Assembly: GCF_004010195.1 (NCBI RefSeq)
Contig: NC_057719.1
Span: 6,966,740-7,030,739 of the forward strand
Reading direction: 5' to 3'
DNA length: 64,000 nucleotides
From: Chiloscyllium plagiosum
Lineage: Eukaryota
Below, piece by piece: positions 16,438 through 54,401 of the stretch. Position numbers and translations under genes: made by a program. Under the pieces are notes generated by a model. That model saw only the letters and a list, made by a program, of their open reading frames with translations. It was not told the origin of the DNA and made no database searches. Numbering within the stretch: position 1 is the first letter of the stretch; each line of letters opens with the position of its first letter.

Positions 16438-17116
16438 TGTGAAGACGAGGGGGAGGGGGTGGGGGGTGGTGTCTCTGTTCCGCGATCAGTCAATAAACAC
16501 TAGCAATCCAGTCTGGTTCTGTAAGATTTCAGACTTTATTCAATTTCGGCTGGGCACAGATTGTCCAGTAACACGGAGGTTAAACACTTGTGCGCGGTTT
16601 CTCAGAGGAACACATGGCTAAAGACAAAGACATTTTAATACTTTTTTTGAGGTCATAATCACCGAGCACATTGAAACAATTACCAATCAATTTTATTTGA
16701 TAGCAACTTTATTGACAGCAACTTAACACAGTGATATTTCCTGGGAACCAACCTTGTTTTCCAACATCCAAGTACTCCTATCTCGCGACCTAGTCTCTAC
16801 ACCTGCACTTGCAAGGTCAGTTAGGATGGCTAGTAATGTCTTATCTAGTCTAGTGATTTCTATACTGTAAAGGAAGCATTGTCTGCTAATCTTTGTTGAG
16901 ACAGACGATCATTAGTTTAACTTTTAGCAGGGTTAAAAACCATTTTATGCAGCTTTAAGCAGAATTGTCAATTTACAGTCGAGAAGCCATTTTGTCGTGT
17001 TATTGGCATTAAGAAGCCATTTTAATGCTGCCTATGTTAGTAAAAGCATGTATTAAATGGTTATTCCTGTTACTTCAACTAGTTATTTCAGCCTGCATTC
17101 AGATTTCAGATCCTGA
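16438..17116 (-). mobile_element. LTR related to the env-linked LTR at 44741-45520 (probably solo)
   Basis: Colinear similarity (gttccgcgatc, gggcacagatt.gtccag, tagtaatgtc, aagaagccat, taaaagcatg); tttatt at 16535. Confidence 0.75.
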
Positions 17117-29882: not shown

Positions 29883-30202
29883 TGGGCAGCATGCTGGCTC
29901 AGTGGTTAGCACTGCTGCCTCTCAGCACCAGAGACCCGCGTTTGACTCCCACCTTGGGCAGCTGTCTGTGTGGAGTTTGCACGTTCTTCCCGTGTCTGGG
30001 TGGGTTTCCTCCGGATGCTCCAGTTTCCTCCCAAAATCCAAAGACGTGCAGGTCGGGCGCATTGACCATGCTAAATTGCCCATAGTGTCAGGGGTAAATA
30101 TAGGGTGGAGGAATGGGTATGGGTGGGTTACTCTTCGGAGTGTCAGTGTGGACTTGTTGGACCGAAAGGCCTGTTTCCGTACTATAGGGAAATCTAATCT
30201 AT
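29883..30202 (+). mobile_element. HE1-like SINE
   Basis: tRNA head, V-domain, aatct tail. Confidence 0.92.
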
Positions 30203-30512
30203 TTTCTGAATGGTCAGTTGTACATTTAAATAAAAAATCTCTAAAACCACTGATATTCCAACTTGCCAACTTCATTTAGTTTAACCATTGGATGACATAA
30301 GACTAACACCCAGCCACATTGTAATATTAGTTATAAACTGGGTTTGATACTTTTTGCACAGTCTTATCTATATGGTTTAATGCAGCTCATTCAATGTTCT
30401 GTTACTGATTTTGGGAGTTGAGAATTTGGGATATATAGTTTAATATGTTTGAAAAATTGATTGCGATGATTACTTCACCCAGAAAGCATCTATCAGGTTA
30501 ATTTTCTCATGT

Positions 30513-30824
30513 GGGTGGCACGGTGGCTCAGTGGTTAGAACTGCTGCCTCCTCTGACCAGGGTCCCAGGTTTGATTCCAGCCTTGGGGGATTGTTTGTGT
30601 GGAGTTTGCACGTTCTTCCCGGGTCTGCGTGGGTTTCCTCCGGGTGCTCCGGTTTCCTCCCACAGTCCAAAGATGTGCAGGTCAGGTGAATTTGCTAAAT
30701 TGCCTATAGTGTTAGGTGTATTAGTCAGAGGGAATTGGGTCAGGGTGGGTTACTCTTCGGAGATTTGGTGTGGACTTGTTGGGCCAAAGGGCCTGTTTCC
30801 ACACTGTAGGGAATCTAATCTTAA
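30513..30824 (+). mobile_element. HE1-like SINE
   Basis: tRNA head, V-domain, aatct tail. Confidence 0.92.
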
Positions 30825-37308: not shown

Positions 37309-38476
37309 TCCTGCTCCTCGGATGCTGCCTGGCCTGCTGTGTTTTTTCAGCACCACATTTTTCAACTCTGGTCTCCAGCATCTGCAGTCCTCACTTTTTC
37401 CAACTTGATCCCTGTGCCAACTCTTTTTCAAATTTTTGGAGGTGGGTATGAAGAAGAGATGTTTAACTGTTGTATATTTTTGATTTGGCACCTGTAAAAC
37501 ACATATATTTCAGTAGAATGAAAGTGCACTGTAGCATGTCCTGAAGGCAAGTGACTTAAGTGCCATGTAGCCCATGCTTATGCTGTATCTGCCTCTTCAT
37601 TTCAGAAACTGTAAAGATGATGTATGTTGTGCACACAGTGAAATACTTTTAACCTCTATGAAATATTTATTTTGATAAAATTACCATCATTTATAGTCAA
37701 AACTCTTCTCTTCATTCAAATCTCTAATGATGGCTGTCCCTAATAGAAACAACTAATCCAAAGCAATTTAGAGCTGTTGAAGTACCTTTTAAGTGTAGTC
37801 ATTATGTCCTGCTGCGAAATGCAGCAGTTAAGTTTATGGTTGCTGTGATGTGCAGTATTTGAGACCATGGTGGATGGATGCAAATTCAGTTGTAACTTTC
37901 AAAAGGGACTTGGATAAGCACTTGGAGGAAGAATGGCTACTGGGAGTGTGTTAGGGAGTGAAACTAGCTTAATTACTCTCTCAAAGAACTGGCACAGACT
38001 TTGGCTCAGTGGTCTTTTGTGCTACAACCACAACTGGAGTGTTGGACTTGAAACTGTTTTGGCATCAGCAATAACTTTGGCCTTTTCAGTGAAGTCCCTT
38101 TTCTATTAACAGATTAAAAAGCAAGGCACGCAGTAGAAGCTTACCAGGAGTTGTTACTAGCACCACTGATTTTCTTGATAAATGTTAATCATTTAGGTCA
38201 AGAAATGCTGGCTGTAATTTCAAAGCTGCAGATGATAAAGAAGATGGAGGTATAGTAAACCATTAGGAATATAAGCAATGGTCACCAAAGCATGTAGTTT
38301 AGTCAGACATATAGCAAATGAAATTGACTGACTGCAGAGAAATATGAATTGTTACCTTTTGGTGGGAGTGAGAGAATAAGCAAGGTAAAATGAGGAAAAT
38401 GATTGTAAGAAGGCTGCACAAGCAAAGAAACCTGTTGGGAAATGTACACATTTGCCTGTGGTTAGTTGAGAAATAG

Positions 38477-38800
38477 GGGCAGCATGGTGAAACAGTGGTT
38501 AACGCTGCTGCCTCACAGTGCCAGGGCCTCGGCTTCGATTCCGGCCTCGGGTGACTGGAATTTGCACATTCTCTGTGTCTGATGGGTTTCTGCTGCATGC
38601 TCCAGTTCCATTCTGCAGTCCAGAAACGTTCAGGATAGGTAGATTGGCCATGCTATATTGTTCATAGTGTCCAGAGATGTGGAGGTTAGGTGGATTAGCT
38701 GTGGTCCGTGCAGAGTTACAGGGATAGGGTGGGGAAGTGATTCTAGGTAAGATGCTGTTCGGAGGGCCTCTGTTTGCGCACTAGGAATTCTATGATTTTA
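38477..38800 (+). mobile_element. older HE1-like SINE inside an old LINE fragment
   Basis: tRNA head ggggcagcatggtg...cagtggtt and V-domain. Confidence 0.85.
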
Positions 38801-39778: not shown

Positions 39779-41294
39779 GAGTCATTGAGATGTACAGCAT
39801 GGAAACAGACCCTTTGGTCCAACCTGTCCAGGCCAACCAGATATCCCAACTCAATCTAGTCCCACCTGCCAGCACCCTGCCCATGTCCCTCCAAACCCTT
39901 TCTATTCTTATTCCCATCTAAATGCCTCTTAAATGTTGCAATTGTACCAGCCTCCACCACTTCCTCTGGCAGCTCATTCAATACGCATACCACCCTCTGT
40001 GTGGAAAAAGTTGCCCCGTAGGTCTCTCTTAAATCTTTCCCCTCACCCTAAACCTATGCCCTCTAGTTCTGGACTCCCTCACCCCAGGGAAGAGAATTTG
40101 TCTATTTACCCTATCAATGCCCCTCATAATTTTGTAAACCTCTATTAGGTCATCCCTCAGCCTCCGACACTCCAGGGAAAACAGCCCCAGCCTGTTCAGC
40201 CCCTCCCTAGAGCTCAAATCCTCCAACCCTGGCAACATCCTTGTAAATCTTCTCTGAACCCTTTCAAGTTTCACACCATCTTTCCGATAGGAAGGAGACC
40301 AGAATTGCACGCAATATTCCAACAGTGGCCTAACCAATGTCCTGTACAGCCACAACATGACCTCCCAACTCCTGTACTCAAGACTCTGACCAGTAAAGGA
40401 AAGTATAGCAAACGCCACCTTCACTATCCTATCTACCTGCGACTCCACTTTCAAGGAGCTATGAACCTGCACTCCAAGGTCTCTTTGTTCAGCAACACTC
40501 CCTAGGACCTTACCATTACTGGGCAGCATGGTGGCACAGTGGTTAGCACTTCTGTCTCACAGCGCCAGAGACCTGAGTTCAATTCCCACCTTGGGCGACT
40601 GTCCGTGTGGGTTTCTCCCCATGTCTGCGTGGGTTTCCTCCGGGTGCTCTGGTTTCCTCCCACAATCCAAAAGATGTGCAGGTTGGCTATGCTAAATTGC
40701 CCATAGTGTTAGGTGTAGGGGAGCGGGTCTAGGTGGGTTGCTGTTCAGAGGGTTGGTGTGGACTTGTTGGGCCGAAGGGCCTGTTCCCACACTGTAAATA
40801 ATCTCATCTAATCTAATCTAATCATTAAGTCCTGTTAAGATTTGCTTTCCCAAAATGTAGCACCTTGCATTTATCTGAATTAAACTCCATCTGCCACTTC
40901 TCAGCCCATTGGCCCATCTGGTCAAGATTCTGTCCACTACACCTCCAATTTTGGTGTCATCTGCAAACTTACTAACTGTAACTCTTTTATGCTCACATAC
41001 AAATCATTTATGTAAATGACAAAAAGTAGAGGACCCATCACTGATCCTTGTGGCACTCCACTGGTCACAGGCCTCCAGTCTGAAAAACAACCCTCTACCA
41101 CCACCCTCTGTCTTCTACCTTTGAGCCAGTTCTGTATCCAAATGGCTGTATTCCATGAGATCTAACCTTGCTAATCAGTCTCCCATGGGGAACCTTGTCA
41201 AACACCTTACTGAAGTCATCATATCTACTGCTCTGGCCTCATCAATCCTCTGATACTTCCTCAAAAAAACTCAATCAAGTTTGTGAGACATGAT
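39779..41294 (-). mobile_element. CR1/HER1 LINE
   Basis: 166-aa RT C-terminal ORF 40029-40529; closely similar to 6284-7945. Confidence 0.95.
40520..40822 (+). mobile_element. HE1-like SINE nested in CR1
   Basis: Full SINE; catta repeated at 40514-40518 and 40823-40827. Confidence 0.9.
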
Positions 41295-44531: not shown

Positions 44532-45129
44532 TGTTTCATAGAACAGTCAGTTTGCCTGCAAATATTATTTATGCTGATTCATCTTGGATTTGGCCCTGCC
44601 CATCGTGAGCAGTGGTCTCTAGATTTACAAGTTGGATTGATTTGTCACATCTGCATTATCTTAAAAAATCAAGTATCAACTTTTTCACGCAGGGGGTGGT
44701 GCATATATATGGAATAAGCTGCCAGAGGAAATGGTGGAGTTGTAGATCTCGATCCCTGGGAGGGGTGTCTCAGTTCCGCGATCGATCAAATAAGCAACAG
44801 GAATGTGGTCTGCTTCAGCAAGTTTCACAGTTTATTTTGATACCGGGCACAGATTTGTCCAGCAACATAGAGCTTAACAGCTTCTGTGTTCCTTTGAAAA
44901 ACTGAGTGATTTCACTTGGAACAAAGGCAATTTTTTATGTTTCTTAAGAAATAGTACAGCCTTAATTACAGAATAAAGCCAATAAAATGTAATAAATTAC
45001 ATAATGGGCAACGAGTTAACCCAATGATATTTTCTGGAAAACAAAGTTGTTTACACATTTATCTCTTCCCACCTGCATTTCAAGGTTAACTAAAATAGTA
45101 ATGTCCTATCTAACTTAGTTAATTCCATG

Positions 45130-45332
45130 ATTTGGAGATGCCGGTGTTGGACTGGGGTGTACAAAGTTAAAAATCACACAACACCAGGTTATAGTCCAAC
45201 AGGTTTAATTGGAAACACACTAGCTTTCGGAGCGATGCTCCTTCACAATCACCTGGTGAAGGAGCGTCGCTCCGAAAGCTAGTGTGCTTCCAATTAAACC
45301 TGTTGCACTATAACCTGGTGTTGTGTGATTTT
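45130..45332. mobile_element. PLE family B fold-back insertion in the LTR
   Basis: 83-bp arms 45164-45246 and 45256-45338 with 3 mismatches; 19-bp TSD taacttagttaattccatg at 45111-45129 and 45333-45351; empty site in the paralogous LTR near 16845-16865. Confidence 0.9.
45250..45284 (+). ncRNA. hammerhead-like motif with A6G core change (probably inactive)
   Basis: cac CUGgUGA a GGAGC-guc-GCUCC GAAA gc UA gug. Confidence 0.65.
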
Positions 45333-45520
45333 TAACTTAGTTAATTCCATGCTGTGAAGGGTCATTGTTCTGCTTGATCTTTAATTCAGTTAGCTCAGGA
45401 ATGCAGCCTGAAGCCATTTTGTTAAGTTACTTTGTATTAAGAAGCCATATTGTGGTTCATAAAAGCATGCATTAAATGGTTGCACCTGACAACAGCCTAA
45501 ATCCAGATTTTAGATTGTCA

Positions 45521-45533
45521 TCTCCCTGCTTTG
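45521..45533 (-). other. polypurine tract
   Basis: Minus strand aaagcagggaga directly abutting the LTR TG. Confidence 0.65.
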
Positions 45534-45688
45534 GTCATTCCATGACCACACCATAGGCGGTGAGGGCATAACATAGATCAATCCAATTGAATGGATGCCA
45601 GAGACTGTCATACTTCCTCTTCCACCAGGGAGGAAGTACGGGTAGGCAATGATGCCTCCTCATCTTCACCTGAATGGAGAAGGAGCAT

Positions 45689-46190
45689 TTATTGGGTTGA
45701 ACCGATGTTGTCAATATTAGTTCGTATTTTAGCAATAATACACTTAACAATAGCAATGGCAGCAAAAAGACCAATTAAAACAATAGCAGCATACATAGCC
45801 ATATTTATCAGCCAGTTTATCATGAGCCGAAATCCCAATCTCCCCATGCTGCACCTCGATGAGGGCAGTGACCCCCATGATACATTTGCTTTTAACTATG
45901 GTGCAAACTCCACCTTCCTTTGCAAGTATGTAGTCAAAGGCGTATTGGTTTTATTGGGAAAATAGGCACAATTCTGAAAGGATGTCCCTAACTCCTGCCA
46001 GGGCAGCAGCCATCTCATTACCTAAGAGGGTGAGACTGCAAGTGAGATAATTTTGATTCTGATGGCTGATGACTGCTGCTGAACCTCCCAAAGTAAAGGT
46101 ACTAAGGAATGCGTACCCGAGAGAGTCAGCTTTTGTGGGACTCAATGTCTTAGTATTTCTCCAATGTGTGCAAAACTTAGGTGAGACATG
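45689..46190 (-). pseudogene. env: decayed class I fusion glycoprotein TM subunit (env; filovirus GP2/ASLV-like architecture)
   Basis: SPKFCTHW...SLGYAFLSTFTLGGSAAV..NQNYLTCSLTLLGNEMAAAL...ELCLFSQ*NQYAFDYILAKEGGVCTIVKSKC; after a deletion and frameshifts WGDWDFGS and the TM helix INWLINMAMYAAIVLIGLFAAIAIVKCII (45820 down to the stop at 45689-45691). Confidence 0.88.
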
Positions 46191-46464
46191 GGGGGGGGGT
46201 GCAAGTGGGTAGCGTACTGTCGGAATAGAATGGTGCTCGTTTCAGTATGAGGTGTTTTCTTCTTTTAATATTGCAGTGAACATTTTGTATTTTGGAACTT
46301 TTCAGTAATGTGATTTTCAGCTATGACTCTTGTGACTCCTGGAAGCTGCTGATGAAATTGAGGATTTACAGGATGAAAGTGCCATCTTGATTACTTTCCC
46401 TTCGAAGTAGACTGAAGGCTAAGTTTTGTACAAATGAGTAAGAATATTTTGTTACAGGAAAACA

Positions 46465-46648: not shown

Positions 46649-49600
46649 ATGAACGATAAAGAACAATACAGCACAGGAACAAGTCCTTCGGCCCTCCAAG
46701 CCTGCGCTGACACATTTTGCCCTTCCATACTAAAACTATCTTCGCTTACAGGATCCATACCCCTCTATTTCCTTCCTATTAAAATATTTGTCCAGGTGCT
46801 GCTGCTGTTTGTTTCCACCACCATCTCTGGTAGTAGGTTCCAGGCACACTACATCTTTTTTGTGAAAAACTTGCCTCACAAACCTCTTTTTAAGCCTGCC
46901 CTTTCCTGCCCACAAACTCCACACCTTGAAGTTATGTCCCCTAGTAACTGACTCCTCCACCCTGGGAAAAAGCCTTATACTTTCCACTCTGTTCATCTTG
47001 TAAACTTCTATGAGGTCACCCCTCAACTTCCTGCATTCCAGTGAAATCAAACTCCGTTCAACCTTTCTTCATAGCTAAAATCCCCCATACCAGGTAACAT
47101 CCTGGTAAACCTTTTCTGTATCCTCTCCAAAGCATCCGTGTGTGACCAGAATTGTACACAATATTCCAAGCGTGGCCTAACTAAAGTTCAATAAAGCTGC
47201 AACATAATATGCTTATTCGTACACTCAGTGCCCGTTTCAATGAAGGCAAGCATGCTGTGTTGGCCTTTTTTGCTACCTTATCTCCCATCTTCCATGATCT
47301 GTGGACCTGCACACCCAGATCCCTCTGCGTATCAATACCACTACGGGTTCTGCCATTCACTGTATAATTTCCACCTGTTCTTGACCTTCCAAAATGCATC
47401 ACCTCACGTTTGTCCAGATTAAACTTCACCTGCCATTTTTCTGCCTCCAACTGATCTTTATCCTGCTCTATCCTCTGACAATCCTCCTCACCATCTGCAA
47501 GTCCACAAATTTTTGTGTTGTCTGCAAACTTAGTTATGGCGATGTATAGCACGGAGTGATTAGACCAGCCATATTTTCCTCCAAATCACTTACGTAGACC
47601 GCAAACAGCAGAGGTCCAGCACTGGTCCTTGTGTAACACCACTCGACAGAACCGTCCTTTCCAAAATGCATTCTTCCACCACTACCTTCTGTCTCCTATG
47701 ACTAAGTCAGTTCTGTAGCCATCTTGCTAGCTCACCCATTGACACCATGTGACTTCACTTTTTGTACCTATCTGCCATGAGAGCCTTTGTCAAAGGCTTT
47801 ACTGAAGTGCATGAAGACAACAACAACCACATTTCCTTCATCAATCATCATCTTCATCACCACAAAAAATTCAATCAAATTAGTGAGGCATGACTTTCCC
47901 CACGCAAAACCATGCTATCTATCACTAATAAGTTAATTTACTTCTTGATCAAATATAGATCTTGTCCCTGAGAATTTTTTCCAATAATTTCCCTACCACT
48001 GACAGGGGCCTCGCAGGCCTGTAATTTCCTGGATTGTTCCTGCTACTCTTTTTAAACAATGGGTCCACATTGGTTGTTTTCCAGTCCTCTGGGACCTCAC
48101 TTGTGGCCAAAAAGGATACCAAGATGTCTGTCAATGCTCCAGCAATTTGTTCTCTTGCTTCCCTGCATATTTTGGGATAGATCCCATCAGGACTTGGAGA
48201 CTTATCTACTTTAATATTTTTAAAGACACATAGCACCTCTTACTTTTTAATAGCAACTTGGCTTAGAAATTCAACACTCCCTTCCCTGAGATCATTGTCC
48301 ACCAATTCATTCTCTTCGATGAAAACTGACACACAGTATTAGTTTAGGACCTCATCTACCTCTTCTGGCTCCACACAGATTCCTTCTGTTGTCCTTGAGT
48401 GGGCCAATCCTTTCCCTGACTACCGTCTTGCTTTTTGCATATGCATAAAGAGCCTTGGTATTCTCCTTAATCCTGTTTGCTATTGACTCTTCATGACCCC
48501 TTTTTGCCCTTCTAATTTCTTGTATAAGTTCTTTTCTACTTTCTTTATATGTTTCAAGGGCTTAATCCATTCCCATCCTCCTAGATCTTGAGTATGCTTC
48601 CTTTTCCTTTTTGACCAAAGTCATAACATCTCTAGTCATCCAAGGCTAACATTCCTATCCATCTTGCAAGAACATAGCACTCTGAATTCTTTTCAACTGC
48701 CGTTTGAAATATTCCATATGTCAGATGTGGATTTACCCCCAAACAGGTGCCTCCGATCAGTCTTCTCCAGTTCCTGCCTAATATTGTTGTAGTTAGCCTT
48801 CTCCCAATTTAAGGCCTTCATCTGAGGACTGCTGCTATCCCTATCAATGAGTTATCTTAAAAATCTCAGTATTATGGTCACTACTCCCAGTGCTTGCCCA
48901 CTGAAAGTTCACTCACCTGGCCGGGTTCATTTCCCAAAATCAGGTCCAGTATAGCCCCTTCCTAGGGTTGGACTAATTACATAATGTCAAGAAAACCTCC
49001 TGAATAGTCCTTGCAAATTCTGCCCCATCCAAGCTCCTGGCATGAAGTGATTCTGTCAATATGGGGGAAGTTAAAATCATCCGTCACAACAACCATGCCG
49101 TTTTTACATCTTTCCAAAATCTGTCGACATATTCTCTCCTCTATTTTCTGCTGGCTGTTGGGAGGCCTGTAGTATACCCCGAGTAGCCAAGCAGGAGGCT
49201 GGAAGAACACAGCAACCAGGCAGCATCAGGTGGTGGAGAAGTTGACGTTTCAGGTGGAACCTTCCTTCGGGACTAGGGGTGGGTGTTAGGGGAGCTGCAG
49301 ATCACTGAATGCACATCTAAGAGAGGCAGAGAACTTCCTCAAAGTGGGTATCCTTTGAAGAGACTTCGCAGTGGTACAAACTTGGTTAGAGACAAAAAAA
49401 CTGCAGATGCTGGAATCCAAGGTAGATAAACAGGAGGTCGGAAGAACTCAGCATCAGGAGGTGGAGAAGTCTGTTTTGGGTGTAACCCTCCTTCAAGACT
49501 GGGGGTAGGTGTAAGGGGAGCTGCGATCACTGAGTGCATGTCTGAGGGAGGCAGAGAACCCAGCATTGTGGTTTCACCTTTCCTGTTCCTGAGTTCTACC

Positions 49601-49700
49601 TAATATTGTCTCATTGCATGAGTCCTTTGTTATCCTCCCTCAGTATAGCTAAGAGATACTCCTTTACCAGGAATGCAACTCCCCATCCCTTTTCCACAAC
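46649..49700 (-). mobile_element. long CR1-clade LINE ORF2 remnant (APE endonuclease and RT)
   Basis: LLGVYYRPPNSQ..VVVTDDFNFPHID (APE); KSPSPDGIYP, PGNYRP, KFADNTK (RT); 3' tail at 46649. Confidence 0.92.
49185..49560 (-). mobile_element. two tandem PLE 3'-end fragments inserted in the CR1 endonuclease region
   Basis: Repeated caggagg...gcatcagg.ggtggagaag...ggggagctgc block. Confidence 0.65.
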
Positions 49701-53775: not shown

Positions 53776-54082
53776 TCAATTGTAAACTACAAGGCTTTAC
53801 GTTGAACATCTGGTTTAGAGCAGAGGAATTATGCAATGGAAAGTGTATGGATGTAAGAATAAAATACTCGAACAGTATGTAAAAGTGGCTGATCAACTGA
53901 AGTACTAGCCATGGAGCCATTTTTAAATAAGACGGGGGAACTTCATTGTTGTATATGATTGAGAGGGGTCACAGTTATTTATAGTATATATTAATGATTT
54001 GAATGATGAAGGTGAATGTGTGAAAGCCAAATTTGGATGACACAAAAATATGTGTGAAGGCACATGATGAGGATCGGAGTCT

Positions 54083-54401
54083 GCGGCACGGTGGCACAGA
54101 GGTTAGCACTGCTGCCTCACAGCGCCAGAGACCCGGGTTCAATTCCCGCCTCAGGCGACTGACTGTGTGGAGTTTGCACGTTCTCCCTGTGTCTGCGTGG
54201 GTTTCCTCCGGGTGCTCCAATTTCTTCCCACAGTCCAAAGATGTGCAGGTTAGGTGAATTGGCCATGCTAAAATTGCCCGTAGTGTTAGGTAAGGGGTAA
54301 ATGTAGGGGTATGGGTGGGTTGCGCTTCGGCGGGTCGGTGTGGACTTGCTGGGCCGAAGGGCCTGTTTCCACACTGTAATGTAATGTAATCTAATCTAAT
54401 C
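54083..54401 (+). mobile_element. young full-length HE1-like SINE within an old LINE (~53800-54745)
   Basis: Near-identical to 18832-19155 in the opposite orientation. Confidence 0.95.

Follow-up and report, generated by a model that had tools for sequence, protein, structure and literature searches.

A filovirus GP2-like transmembrane subunit in the relic of an endogenous retrovirus of Chiloscyllium plagiosum

Filovirus-like ectodomains have been described in retroelements of Chiloscyllium, Scyliorhinus, Amblyraja and Leucoraja (Nat Microbiol 2024, PMC11521997), where they are placed as sister to the GP2 of ebola-, cueva-, marburg- and dianloviruses with a posterior of 0.83. According to the same article, filoviruses and reptarenaviruses captured their ectodomain from retroviruses three times, Tapajos virus is placed with endogenous retroviruses (ERVs) of lizards, and the nearest ERVs of reptarenavirus GP2 are found in tarsiers; the terms 'fusion loop', 'cysteine' and 'disulfide' each have 0 occurrences in its main text. 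ERVs with a gamma-type env have been reported from six cartilaginous fish, with >500 copies in three of them, together with CXnC variants of the motif and new fusion peptides (bioRxiv 10.1101/2021.11.23.469661). The hallmarks of a gamma-type Env are given as an immunosuppressive domain (ISD) and CX6CC in the transmembrane subunit (TM) and CXXC in the surface subunit (SU), and a glycan site in the first heptad repeat (HR1) is described as one that it has in common with filovirus and snake arenavirus GP2 (PMC9967133). The present study concerns a 64,000-nt stretch of Chiloscyllium plagiosum DNA (NC_057719.1, 6,966,740-7,030,739; hereafter the window, in whose coordinates all positions are given), on whose minus strand, at 46187-45689, lies the half of a retroviral env that encodes the TM, or fusion, subunit.

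This fragment is followed by a polypurine tract (PPT) and a long terminal repeat (LTR), and comparison with other copies in the same genome, with public protein sequences and with solved structures makes it highly probable that it is the relic of an abundant elasmobranch class I ERV whose TM belongs to the filovirus GP2 clade.

Relationship of the transmembrane subunit to filovirus GP2

Translation of the minus strand reproduced exactly the peptide, and the stop at 45951-45953 within it, that had been given in an earlier sequence-only reading of the window. Read through with X at the TAA, this peptide (P0001) aligns by BLASTP to the Zaire Ebola GP2 chain (P0176) with 33/113 identities (E 4e-11), and the gap-free alignment of 59 residues with 23 identities that the reading had proposed lies inside this longer one. 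When P0001 was searched with phmmer against 177,635 Protein Data Bank (PDB) sequences, the top 42 places were all taken by filovirus GP2 chains (from E 9e-8), the first retroviral TM being that of syncytin-2 (E 0.033). A profile built from 19 natural copies of the family and run against the PDB matched filovirus GP2 at E 2e-15 to 8e-13 (52-60 bits) and the reptarenavirus GP2 of CAS virus (PDB 4n21) at E 1.9e-8 (37 bits). Canonical gamma-type retroviral TMs followed at E 7e-5 to 1.7e-2 overall, including syncytin-2 (E 7e-5, 25.7 bits), murine leukaemia virus (MLV; E 3.9e-3, 20.1 bits) and human T-cell leukaemia virus (HTLV; E 6.6e-3, 19.3 bits). By these scores, no retroviral TM of solved structure comes near filovirus GP2 in closeness to the family TM. 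The TM of avian sarcoma/leukosis virus (ASLV), to which the fragment had also been likened, does share its architecture, but the affinity in sequence is weak (E 1.9e-3, 21 bits).

The spacing of the cysteines follows the same pattern. The two Cys that clamp the internal fusion loop lie at a distance of 44 residues in the window copy, against 45 in 5/5 filoviruses, in agreement with the earlier estimate of 44 versus about 45, and the distance from loop Cys 2 to the CX6C motif is 45 residues in the window copy, in 15/19 natural copies and in 5/5 filoviruses. As far as sequence comparison reaches, the likeness is confined to TM/GP2. The GP1 model Filo_glycop was not matched in the family envelopes P0003, P0004 and P0005 (Mengla GP as control, 6e-74), no BLASTP match of the SU to filovirus GP1 was obtained, and the BLASTP match to Marburg GP takes in the GP2 part only, extending through the Trp-rich stretch into the membrane anchor.

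Because the PDB holds no fish ERV envelopes, the profile was rerun on a wider library of 1.84 billion representatives, which returned 572 matches at E 0.001 or better, the 12 at 1e-30 or better being the family itself. The best match outside the family is the Tapajos virus GP (P0019, 75.8 bits), and next come ERV envelopes from Scyliorhinus (63.7 bits), Tachysurus (61.5 bits) and Anolis (59.8 bits) beside the GPs of Mengla (59.2 bits) and Marburg (58.7 bits) viruses. The PDB ranking thus overstates how special the filoviruses are, since fish and reptile ERV envelopes score equally in the wider search. The fragment might accordingly be read as the TM of an ordinary fish gamma/epsilon ERV, its resemblance to filoviruses being the generic similarity conferred by an ISD and a CX6C motif. 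Besides the near-equal scores of the Scyliorhinus, Tachysurus and Anolis envelopes, this reading has in its favour that the Pfam model TLV_coat matches 9/19 family copies, alongside PF22307 in 14/19, and that the lack of fish ERV envelopes in the PDB biases both the phmmer and the profile rankings.

Phylogeny and architecture speak against it, and we consider it unlikely. The maximum-likelihood (ML) tree (75 rows, 111 columns; IQ-TREE, LG+C20 with posterior mean site frequencies, PMSF), used instead of a FastTree overview of 159 rows that did not resolve the deep nodes (support 66), contains a 35-row clade with 99/98 support. To it belong the five filoviruses (100/100) as well as Tapajos virus, the elasmobranch family of 22 rows, the ERV groups of Anolis and Pelodiscus, and P0016, whereas the remaining envelopes of fish and lizards, among them a second Scyliorhinus family and those that had scored like Mengla and Marburg GPs, lie outside it. 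Four named ERV envelopes from outside the clade (those in which the motif was found, out of five tried) are without the loop Cys pair and carry CX6CC, so that the clamped loop and the 45-residue spacing common to 5/5 filoviruses are absent from them. The published Bayesian tree agrees with the filovirus grouping (PMC11521997). Within the clade, a node unites the filoviruses, Tapajos virus and the family with 90/50 support, Tapajos virus joins the elasmobranch family weakly (83/28, in a tree without Mabuya or Varanus sequences), and the window copy falls in an 8-row clade of copies from its own genome (100/98). By score alone the filoviruses would not be uniquely close; the ML tree places the family with them, as far as 111 columns allow, and apart from the remaining ERV envelopes of fish and lizards. 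Together with the profile ranking this bears out the earlier suggestion of a GP2-like fusogen in a cartilaginous-fish retroelement lineage.

Several observations nonetheless weigh against a filovirus affinity of the family. As noted, a number of fish and reptile ERV envelopes (59-64 bits) score as high as filovirus GPs (59 bits). The hidden Markov model (HMM) alignments to filovirus GP2 begin just before loop Cys 2, and homology of the loop itself is argued from its architecture and a weak BLAST extension. The PF22307 score of the window copy (19.7 bits) falls short of the gathering threshold (27), and the model is not diagnostic of filoviruses in any case, because it also matches retroviral TMs; the complete relative P0003 reaches 30.9 bits. 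A structural test was precluded, the AlphaFold2 model of a natural TM copy (L012, run with the 19-copy alignment) having a mean predicted local distance difference test score (pLDDT) of 60.5 and a predicted template modelling score (pTM) of 0.29, so that only its helix layout is usable, the helices coinciding with the expected places of HR1, the second heptad repeat (HR2) and the anchor. The inner node joining filoviruses and family has moderate support only (90/50 here, and a published posterior of 0.83 in PMC11521997), and the tree is unrooted, of 111 columns, and without reptarenavirus, tarsier, Mabuya, Varanus, ASLV and MLV-type sequences. On balance, and as one part of the joint interpretation that we hold to be highly probable, the family TM appears to share a clade with filovirus GP2, which accords with the published view of a capture from retroviruses.

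The retrovirus family and its envelope

A protein search of the C. plagiosum genome with the TM gave 1369 first-look candidates, and the 150 of these that were scored are 39-73% identical in protein sequence. A 380-nt piece of the LTR used as a probe gave 834 first-look candidates, with 39 scored non-self matches that are 82-87% identical. The junction of TM, PPT and LTR recurs in other copies, some of which carry pol as well: in one (L022, contig C6) env is preceded by RVT_1 (E 1e-10), RT_RNaseH and RNase_H, and in another (L024, contig C28) MLVIN_C, the C-terminus of an MLV-type integrase, stands immediately before env. Against the PDB, the reverse transcriptase (RT) matches those of MLV and xenotropic MLV-related virus (XMRV) at 1.4e-29, foamy virus at 4e-14 and Ty3 at 1e-12, and no class II RT is among the matches at E 0.001 or better. 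The C6 copy retains a 5′ LTR fragment that is 92.5% identical to its own 3′ LTR over 120 nt and spans ~6.7 kb from LTR to LTR. An MLV-like RT and integrase upstream of env are thus found in other copies only, and the LTR linkage of the env TM claimed in the sequence-only reading holds both for these copies and, through the PPT and TG...CA LTR, for the window. None of these pol regions was recovered in the window itself.

In a copy on contig C26 of the same genome (L026:8751-9999), a frame containing two motifs that resemble Cys-His zinc knuckles, judged by eye and without a Pfam match, runs nearly into the TM start, an arrangement that suggests an internally deleted gag-env derivative.

Named family members were present in 6/10 clusters looked up, and all of them are elasmobranch (Pristiophorus, Heterodontus, Hemiscyllium, Mobula and Rhincodon), which places the family in sharks and a ray, namely sawshark, horn shark, epaulette shark, whale shark and manta ray. 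Public data include a complete Env open reading frame (ORF) of 646 residues (P0003), and some NCBI annotations of relatives in other elasmobranchs read 'syncytin-1-like'. Considered jointly with the filovirus kinship and the relic status of the window copy, it is highly probable that the family is a very abundant class I (gamma/epsilon-like) ERV of elasmobranchs.

The same context bears on a second alternative, that of an endogenous viral element (EVE) in which a filovirus glycoprotein was integrated by the activity of a long interspersed nuclear element (LINE) beside an unrelated LTR. The top named database matches are indeed filovirus GPs, and a LINE-like remnant lies ~470 nt upstream of the fragment. 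However, other copies have the same TM-PPT-LTR junction, with env preceded by RT, RNase H and integrase in some of them, complete members are without Filo_glycop and match Marburg GP by BLASTP in the GP2 part only, and the copy number runs from hundreds to thousands. We regard a filovirus EVE as very unlikely and rejected it, the context of LTR, PPT, RT and integrase contradicting an origin from a negative-strand RNA virus.

The anatomy of the family envelope was examined in an alignment of the window copy and the 19 natural copies (20 rows). Both Cys of CX6C are invariant (20/20 rows), loop Cys 2 is present in 19/20 rows and loop Cys 1 in 15 of the 17 rows that reach its position, so the family consensus retains the loop pair on which the sequence-only reading had relied. 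CX6C is followed by Ile or Met, and never by Cys, in 23/23 sequences (the 20 rows and P0003-P0005). Of the architecture originally read from the window, a Cys-clamped internal loop followed by HR1, ISD and CX6C(C), the alignment therefore upholds all but the optional third Cys, the motif being CX6C only. Most copies have an N-glycan sequon in HR1, and a further sequon lies a few residues after CX6C in other copies. Intact relatives begin with a signal peptide and an SU of ~400 residues and have a basic cleavage site about six residues before loop Cys 1, after which the TM runs in the order clamped internal loop, HR1, ISD-like stretch, CX6C, HR2, Trp-rich stretch, anchor and short tail. No Pfam family was matched in the SU frames of other copies and of P0003-P0005. 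CXXC was not found in the SU of P0003 or P0004, and CGQC or CGKC occurs in the SU of P0005, P0199 and P0203, which form one sub-lineage.

Since the family lacks the third Cys of CX6CC, its SU and TM probably do not form the disulfide usual in gamma-type or filovirus envelopes. The family may hold its two subunits together differently from both gamma-type retroviruses and filoviruses, because CXXC too is absent in at least part of it. By analogy with solved filovirus and retroviral homologues, the precursor of intact copies would be cleaved at the basic site about six residues before loop Cys 1, the disulfide-clamped internal loop would insert into the target membrane after triggering, and a six-helix bundle would arise as HR2 folds back onto the HR1 trimer.

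Three mismatches between the window copy and Ebola GP2 had been attributed to single CpG-type transitions. The codons at these positions in the 20 rows, given below, fit that idea, and the positions are not breaks of the gene:
Position with Met in the window copy: Thr codons 17 (ACG 4), ATG 3
Position with Cys in the window copy: Arg CGN 8, Cys 4, His 3, others 5
Position with Gln in the window copy: Arg CGN 9 and AGA 1, Gln 5, others 5

The copy in the window and its surroundings

The env fragment and the 3′ end of the element comprise the following features, with the evidence in brackets:
45954-46187, minus strand: start of the env TM, 5′-truncated, containing the last pre-TM residues, loop Cys 1, the hydrophobic internal fusion loop, loop Cys 2 and HR1 up to the stop (translation; homology to other copies from 46187)
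45951-45953, minus strand: in-frame TAA within the ISD-like stretch, at a position where 19/19 other aligned copies have a residue
45857-45950, minus strand: ISD-like stretch, CX6C (next residue Ile, not Cys) and the first residues beyond (translation; part aligning to filovirus GP2)
45856-45857, minus strand: site of a 55-nt deletion (MAFFT DNA alignment with L011, L012, L015 and L019; matching gap between tblastn pieces)
45817-45852, minus strand: Trp-rich membrane-proximal remnant in the third frame (three-frame translation and DNA alignment)
45689-45816, minus strand: membrane-spanning helix and short cytoplasmic tail with a stop at 45689-45691 (frame of P0002; aligns to residues 532-598 of the complete relative P0003)
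45533-45688, minus strand: stretch from the env stop to the PPT (DNA homology to other copies unbroken)
45521-45532, minus strand: polypurine tract AAAGCAGGGAGA, abutting the LTR (direct sequence reading)
44741-45520, minus strand: 3′ LTR from TG at 45520 to CA at 44741, ~580 nt of LTR proper when the later insert is subtracted
45129-45332, no strand assigned: foreign palindromic insert of ~200 nt within the LTR, resembling a miniature inverted-repeat transposable element (MITE) and skipped by other LTR copies

The minus-strand ORF at 45951-46241 is closed by the TAA, and the frame is open again at 45744-45950. Both DNA and protein homology to all other copies stop at 46187/46188, and the gene is therefore 5′-truncated. 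The 55-nt deletion takes out the start of HR2, including the N-glycan sequon kept in other copies, and shifts the frame; two stops (45822-45817) close the Trp-rich remnant, and comparison with four other copies shows the deletion of 1 nt near 45817. As a consequence of the two deletions the env tail is spread over three frames. The Trp-rich stretch, membrane-spanning helix, PPT and LTR named in the sequence-only reading are all present, but the first two do not stand in the frame of the rest of the gene. Counterparts of 45533-45688 still read as cytoplasmic tail in some copies, which have longer tails (L012, L015 and L019).

A PPT directly before a TG...CA LTR, the mark of the 3′ end of an LTR retroelement, is found in the window. 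LTR homology ends at 44732-44743 in 7/7 fetched copies, and its upstream limit is 45515-45523 in the five copies that reach that end. The insert has inverted arms at 45161-45246 and 45256-45341 (86 nt, 95% complementary), and an imperfect direct repeat surrounds it (45102-45137 and 45324-45359). When frames of SU, RT and RNase H and of the integrase and gag regions were searched against the window with tblastn, no match beyond the two TM pieces was obtained, blastn with seven other loci for the rest of the provirus likewise matched only the TM pieces, and no second LTR copy was found among the 20 largest repeat families of the window. The damage thus comprises truncation at 46187, the in-frame stop, the 55-nt and 1-nt deletions, two more stops and the LTR insert. 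The window copy is a non-functional relic that has no start, SU, pol, gag or 5′ LTR and is damaged at five or more points.

A live or co-opted host gene at this locus, such as a syncytin-like fusogen, to which the 'syncytin-1-like' names in other elasmobranchs and the complete 646-residue family ORF in public data might point, has next to no likelihood and was rejected as contradicted by the locus sequence itself, which has neither start nor SU and contains an in-frame stop, two frameshifting deletions and two further stops.

Upstream of the fragment, none of 40 scored genome matches fall in the ~470 nt between 46188 and 46655. Beyond this lies the LINE-like remnant (46656-49700, minus strand), whose tail of ~85 nt (46656-46740) has 2945 first-look candidates in the genome. 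One of its five LINE-like reading frames has a weak Pfam match below the cut-off (Exo_endo_phos_2, 48977-49225, E 0.0021), and since this match is weak and in one frame only, the LINE-like label rests mainly on the repeated tail. Elsewhere in the window, 16451-17114 is 67-72% identical to the LTR region of copies L015 and L024 and could represent a solo LTR from a related ERV family. Short interspersed repeat families recur at 29883-29973, 30512-30602, 38476-38566, 40520-40610, 54080-54170 and other positions, one of these families having a tRNA-like head.

Comparison with known systems

The relationship between these elements and the filovirus family is already published (PMC11521997, 2024), as the sequence-only reading had suspected of related EVEs. 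The shared loop spacing and the missing third Cys of the family are not described in the literature searched, which took in the bioRxiv article without its supplements. To what is known the present analysis makes small additions, namely the match in loop and CX6C spacing, the lack of a third Cys and the lack of a GP1-like SU, and it adds the great abundance of the family in this genome and its presence in both sharks and rays. The locus itself, being a dead fragment, adds nothing functional. The family bears on the source of the Ebola-type and Marburg-type fusion protein, and the published view of a retroviral capture, in which ERVs of cartilaginous fish are the nearest retroviral relatives, has here been reproduced independently from one window.

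A broader proposal, less likely than not, is that the shared ancestry extends beyond the ectodomain of heptad repeats and ISD treated in the literature. The whole GP2 module (clamped loop, CX6C spacing, glycans in HR1 and after CX6C, Trp-rich stretch and anchor) could be shared with an elasmobranch-wide retrovirus lineage that lacks an SU-TM disulfide and some members of which have complete env frames. If so, this lineage would offer the closest living model for the source from which filoviruses obtained their fusion machine, and it would be informative about whether filoviruses gained the GP1-GP2 disulfide or sharks and rays lost it.

Compared with filovirus GP2 (Ebola, Sudan, Lloviu, Mengla and Marburg), the family shares the internal two-Cys loop, the 45 residues from loop Cys 2 to CX6C, the HR1 sequon, the ISD-like stretch, CX6C with a sequon after it, the Trp-rich stretch and the anchor, at 29-30% identity over 113-141 residues. 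It differs in the residue after CX6C, which is Cys in 5/5 filoviruses and Ile or Met in all 23 family sequences, and in its setting, the filovirus protein being paired with GP1 in a negative-strand RNA genome, whereas the family is an LTR retroelement with RT and integrase and no GP1-like SU. The GP of Tapajos virus, a snake filovirus, is 33% identical over 121 residues, including the hydrophobic loop core, and like the family is without a Cys directly after the chain-reversal loop; it differs in being the gene of an exogenous RNA virus and in that this loop is aligned as CX7C instead of CX6C. The reptarenavirus GP2 of CAS virus (4n21) has a homologous ectodomain that is more distant from the family profile (37 bits) than filovirus GP2 (52-60 bits).

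With the canonical gamma-type Env of MLV, syncytins and HTLV the family has in common the ISD-like stretch and CX6C, the layout of a class I fusion protein and a class I ERV as carrier. It differs from them by its internal clamped loop in place of an N-terminal fusion peptide, by the absence of the third Cys and by the absence of an SU CXXC in P0003 and P0004. The ASLV TM, an 'avian gamma-type' Env, differs in having CX6CC and a covalent SU-TM bond (PMC9967133), and ASLV has a class II pol where that of the family is MLV-like.

The ERVs of PMC11521997, as they are described there, agree with the family in host group, in the position of env in LTR elements (LTR spans of 5.8-6.4 kb, against ~6.7 kb for the C6 copy), in their best viral matches, which are the GPs of Tapajos, Zaire, Mengla and Marburg viruses, and in a tree position beside filovirus GP2. 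They differ in number, about a dozen fish loci being reported there against the 1369 first-look candidates in one genome here. In elasmobranch host, retroelement nature and filovirus grouping the family thus matches the clade of that article, in kind rather than locus by locus.

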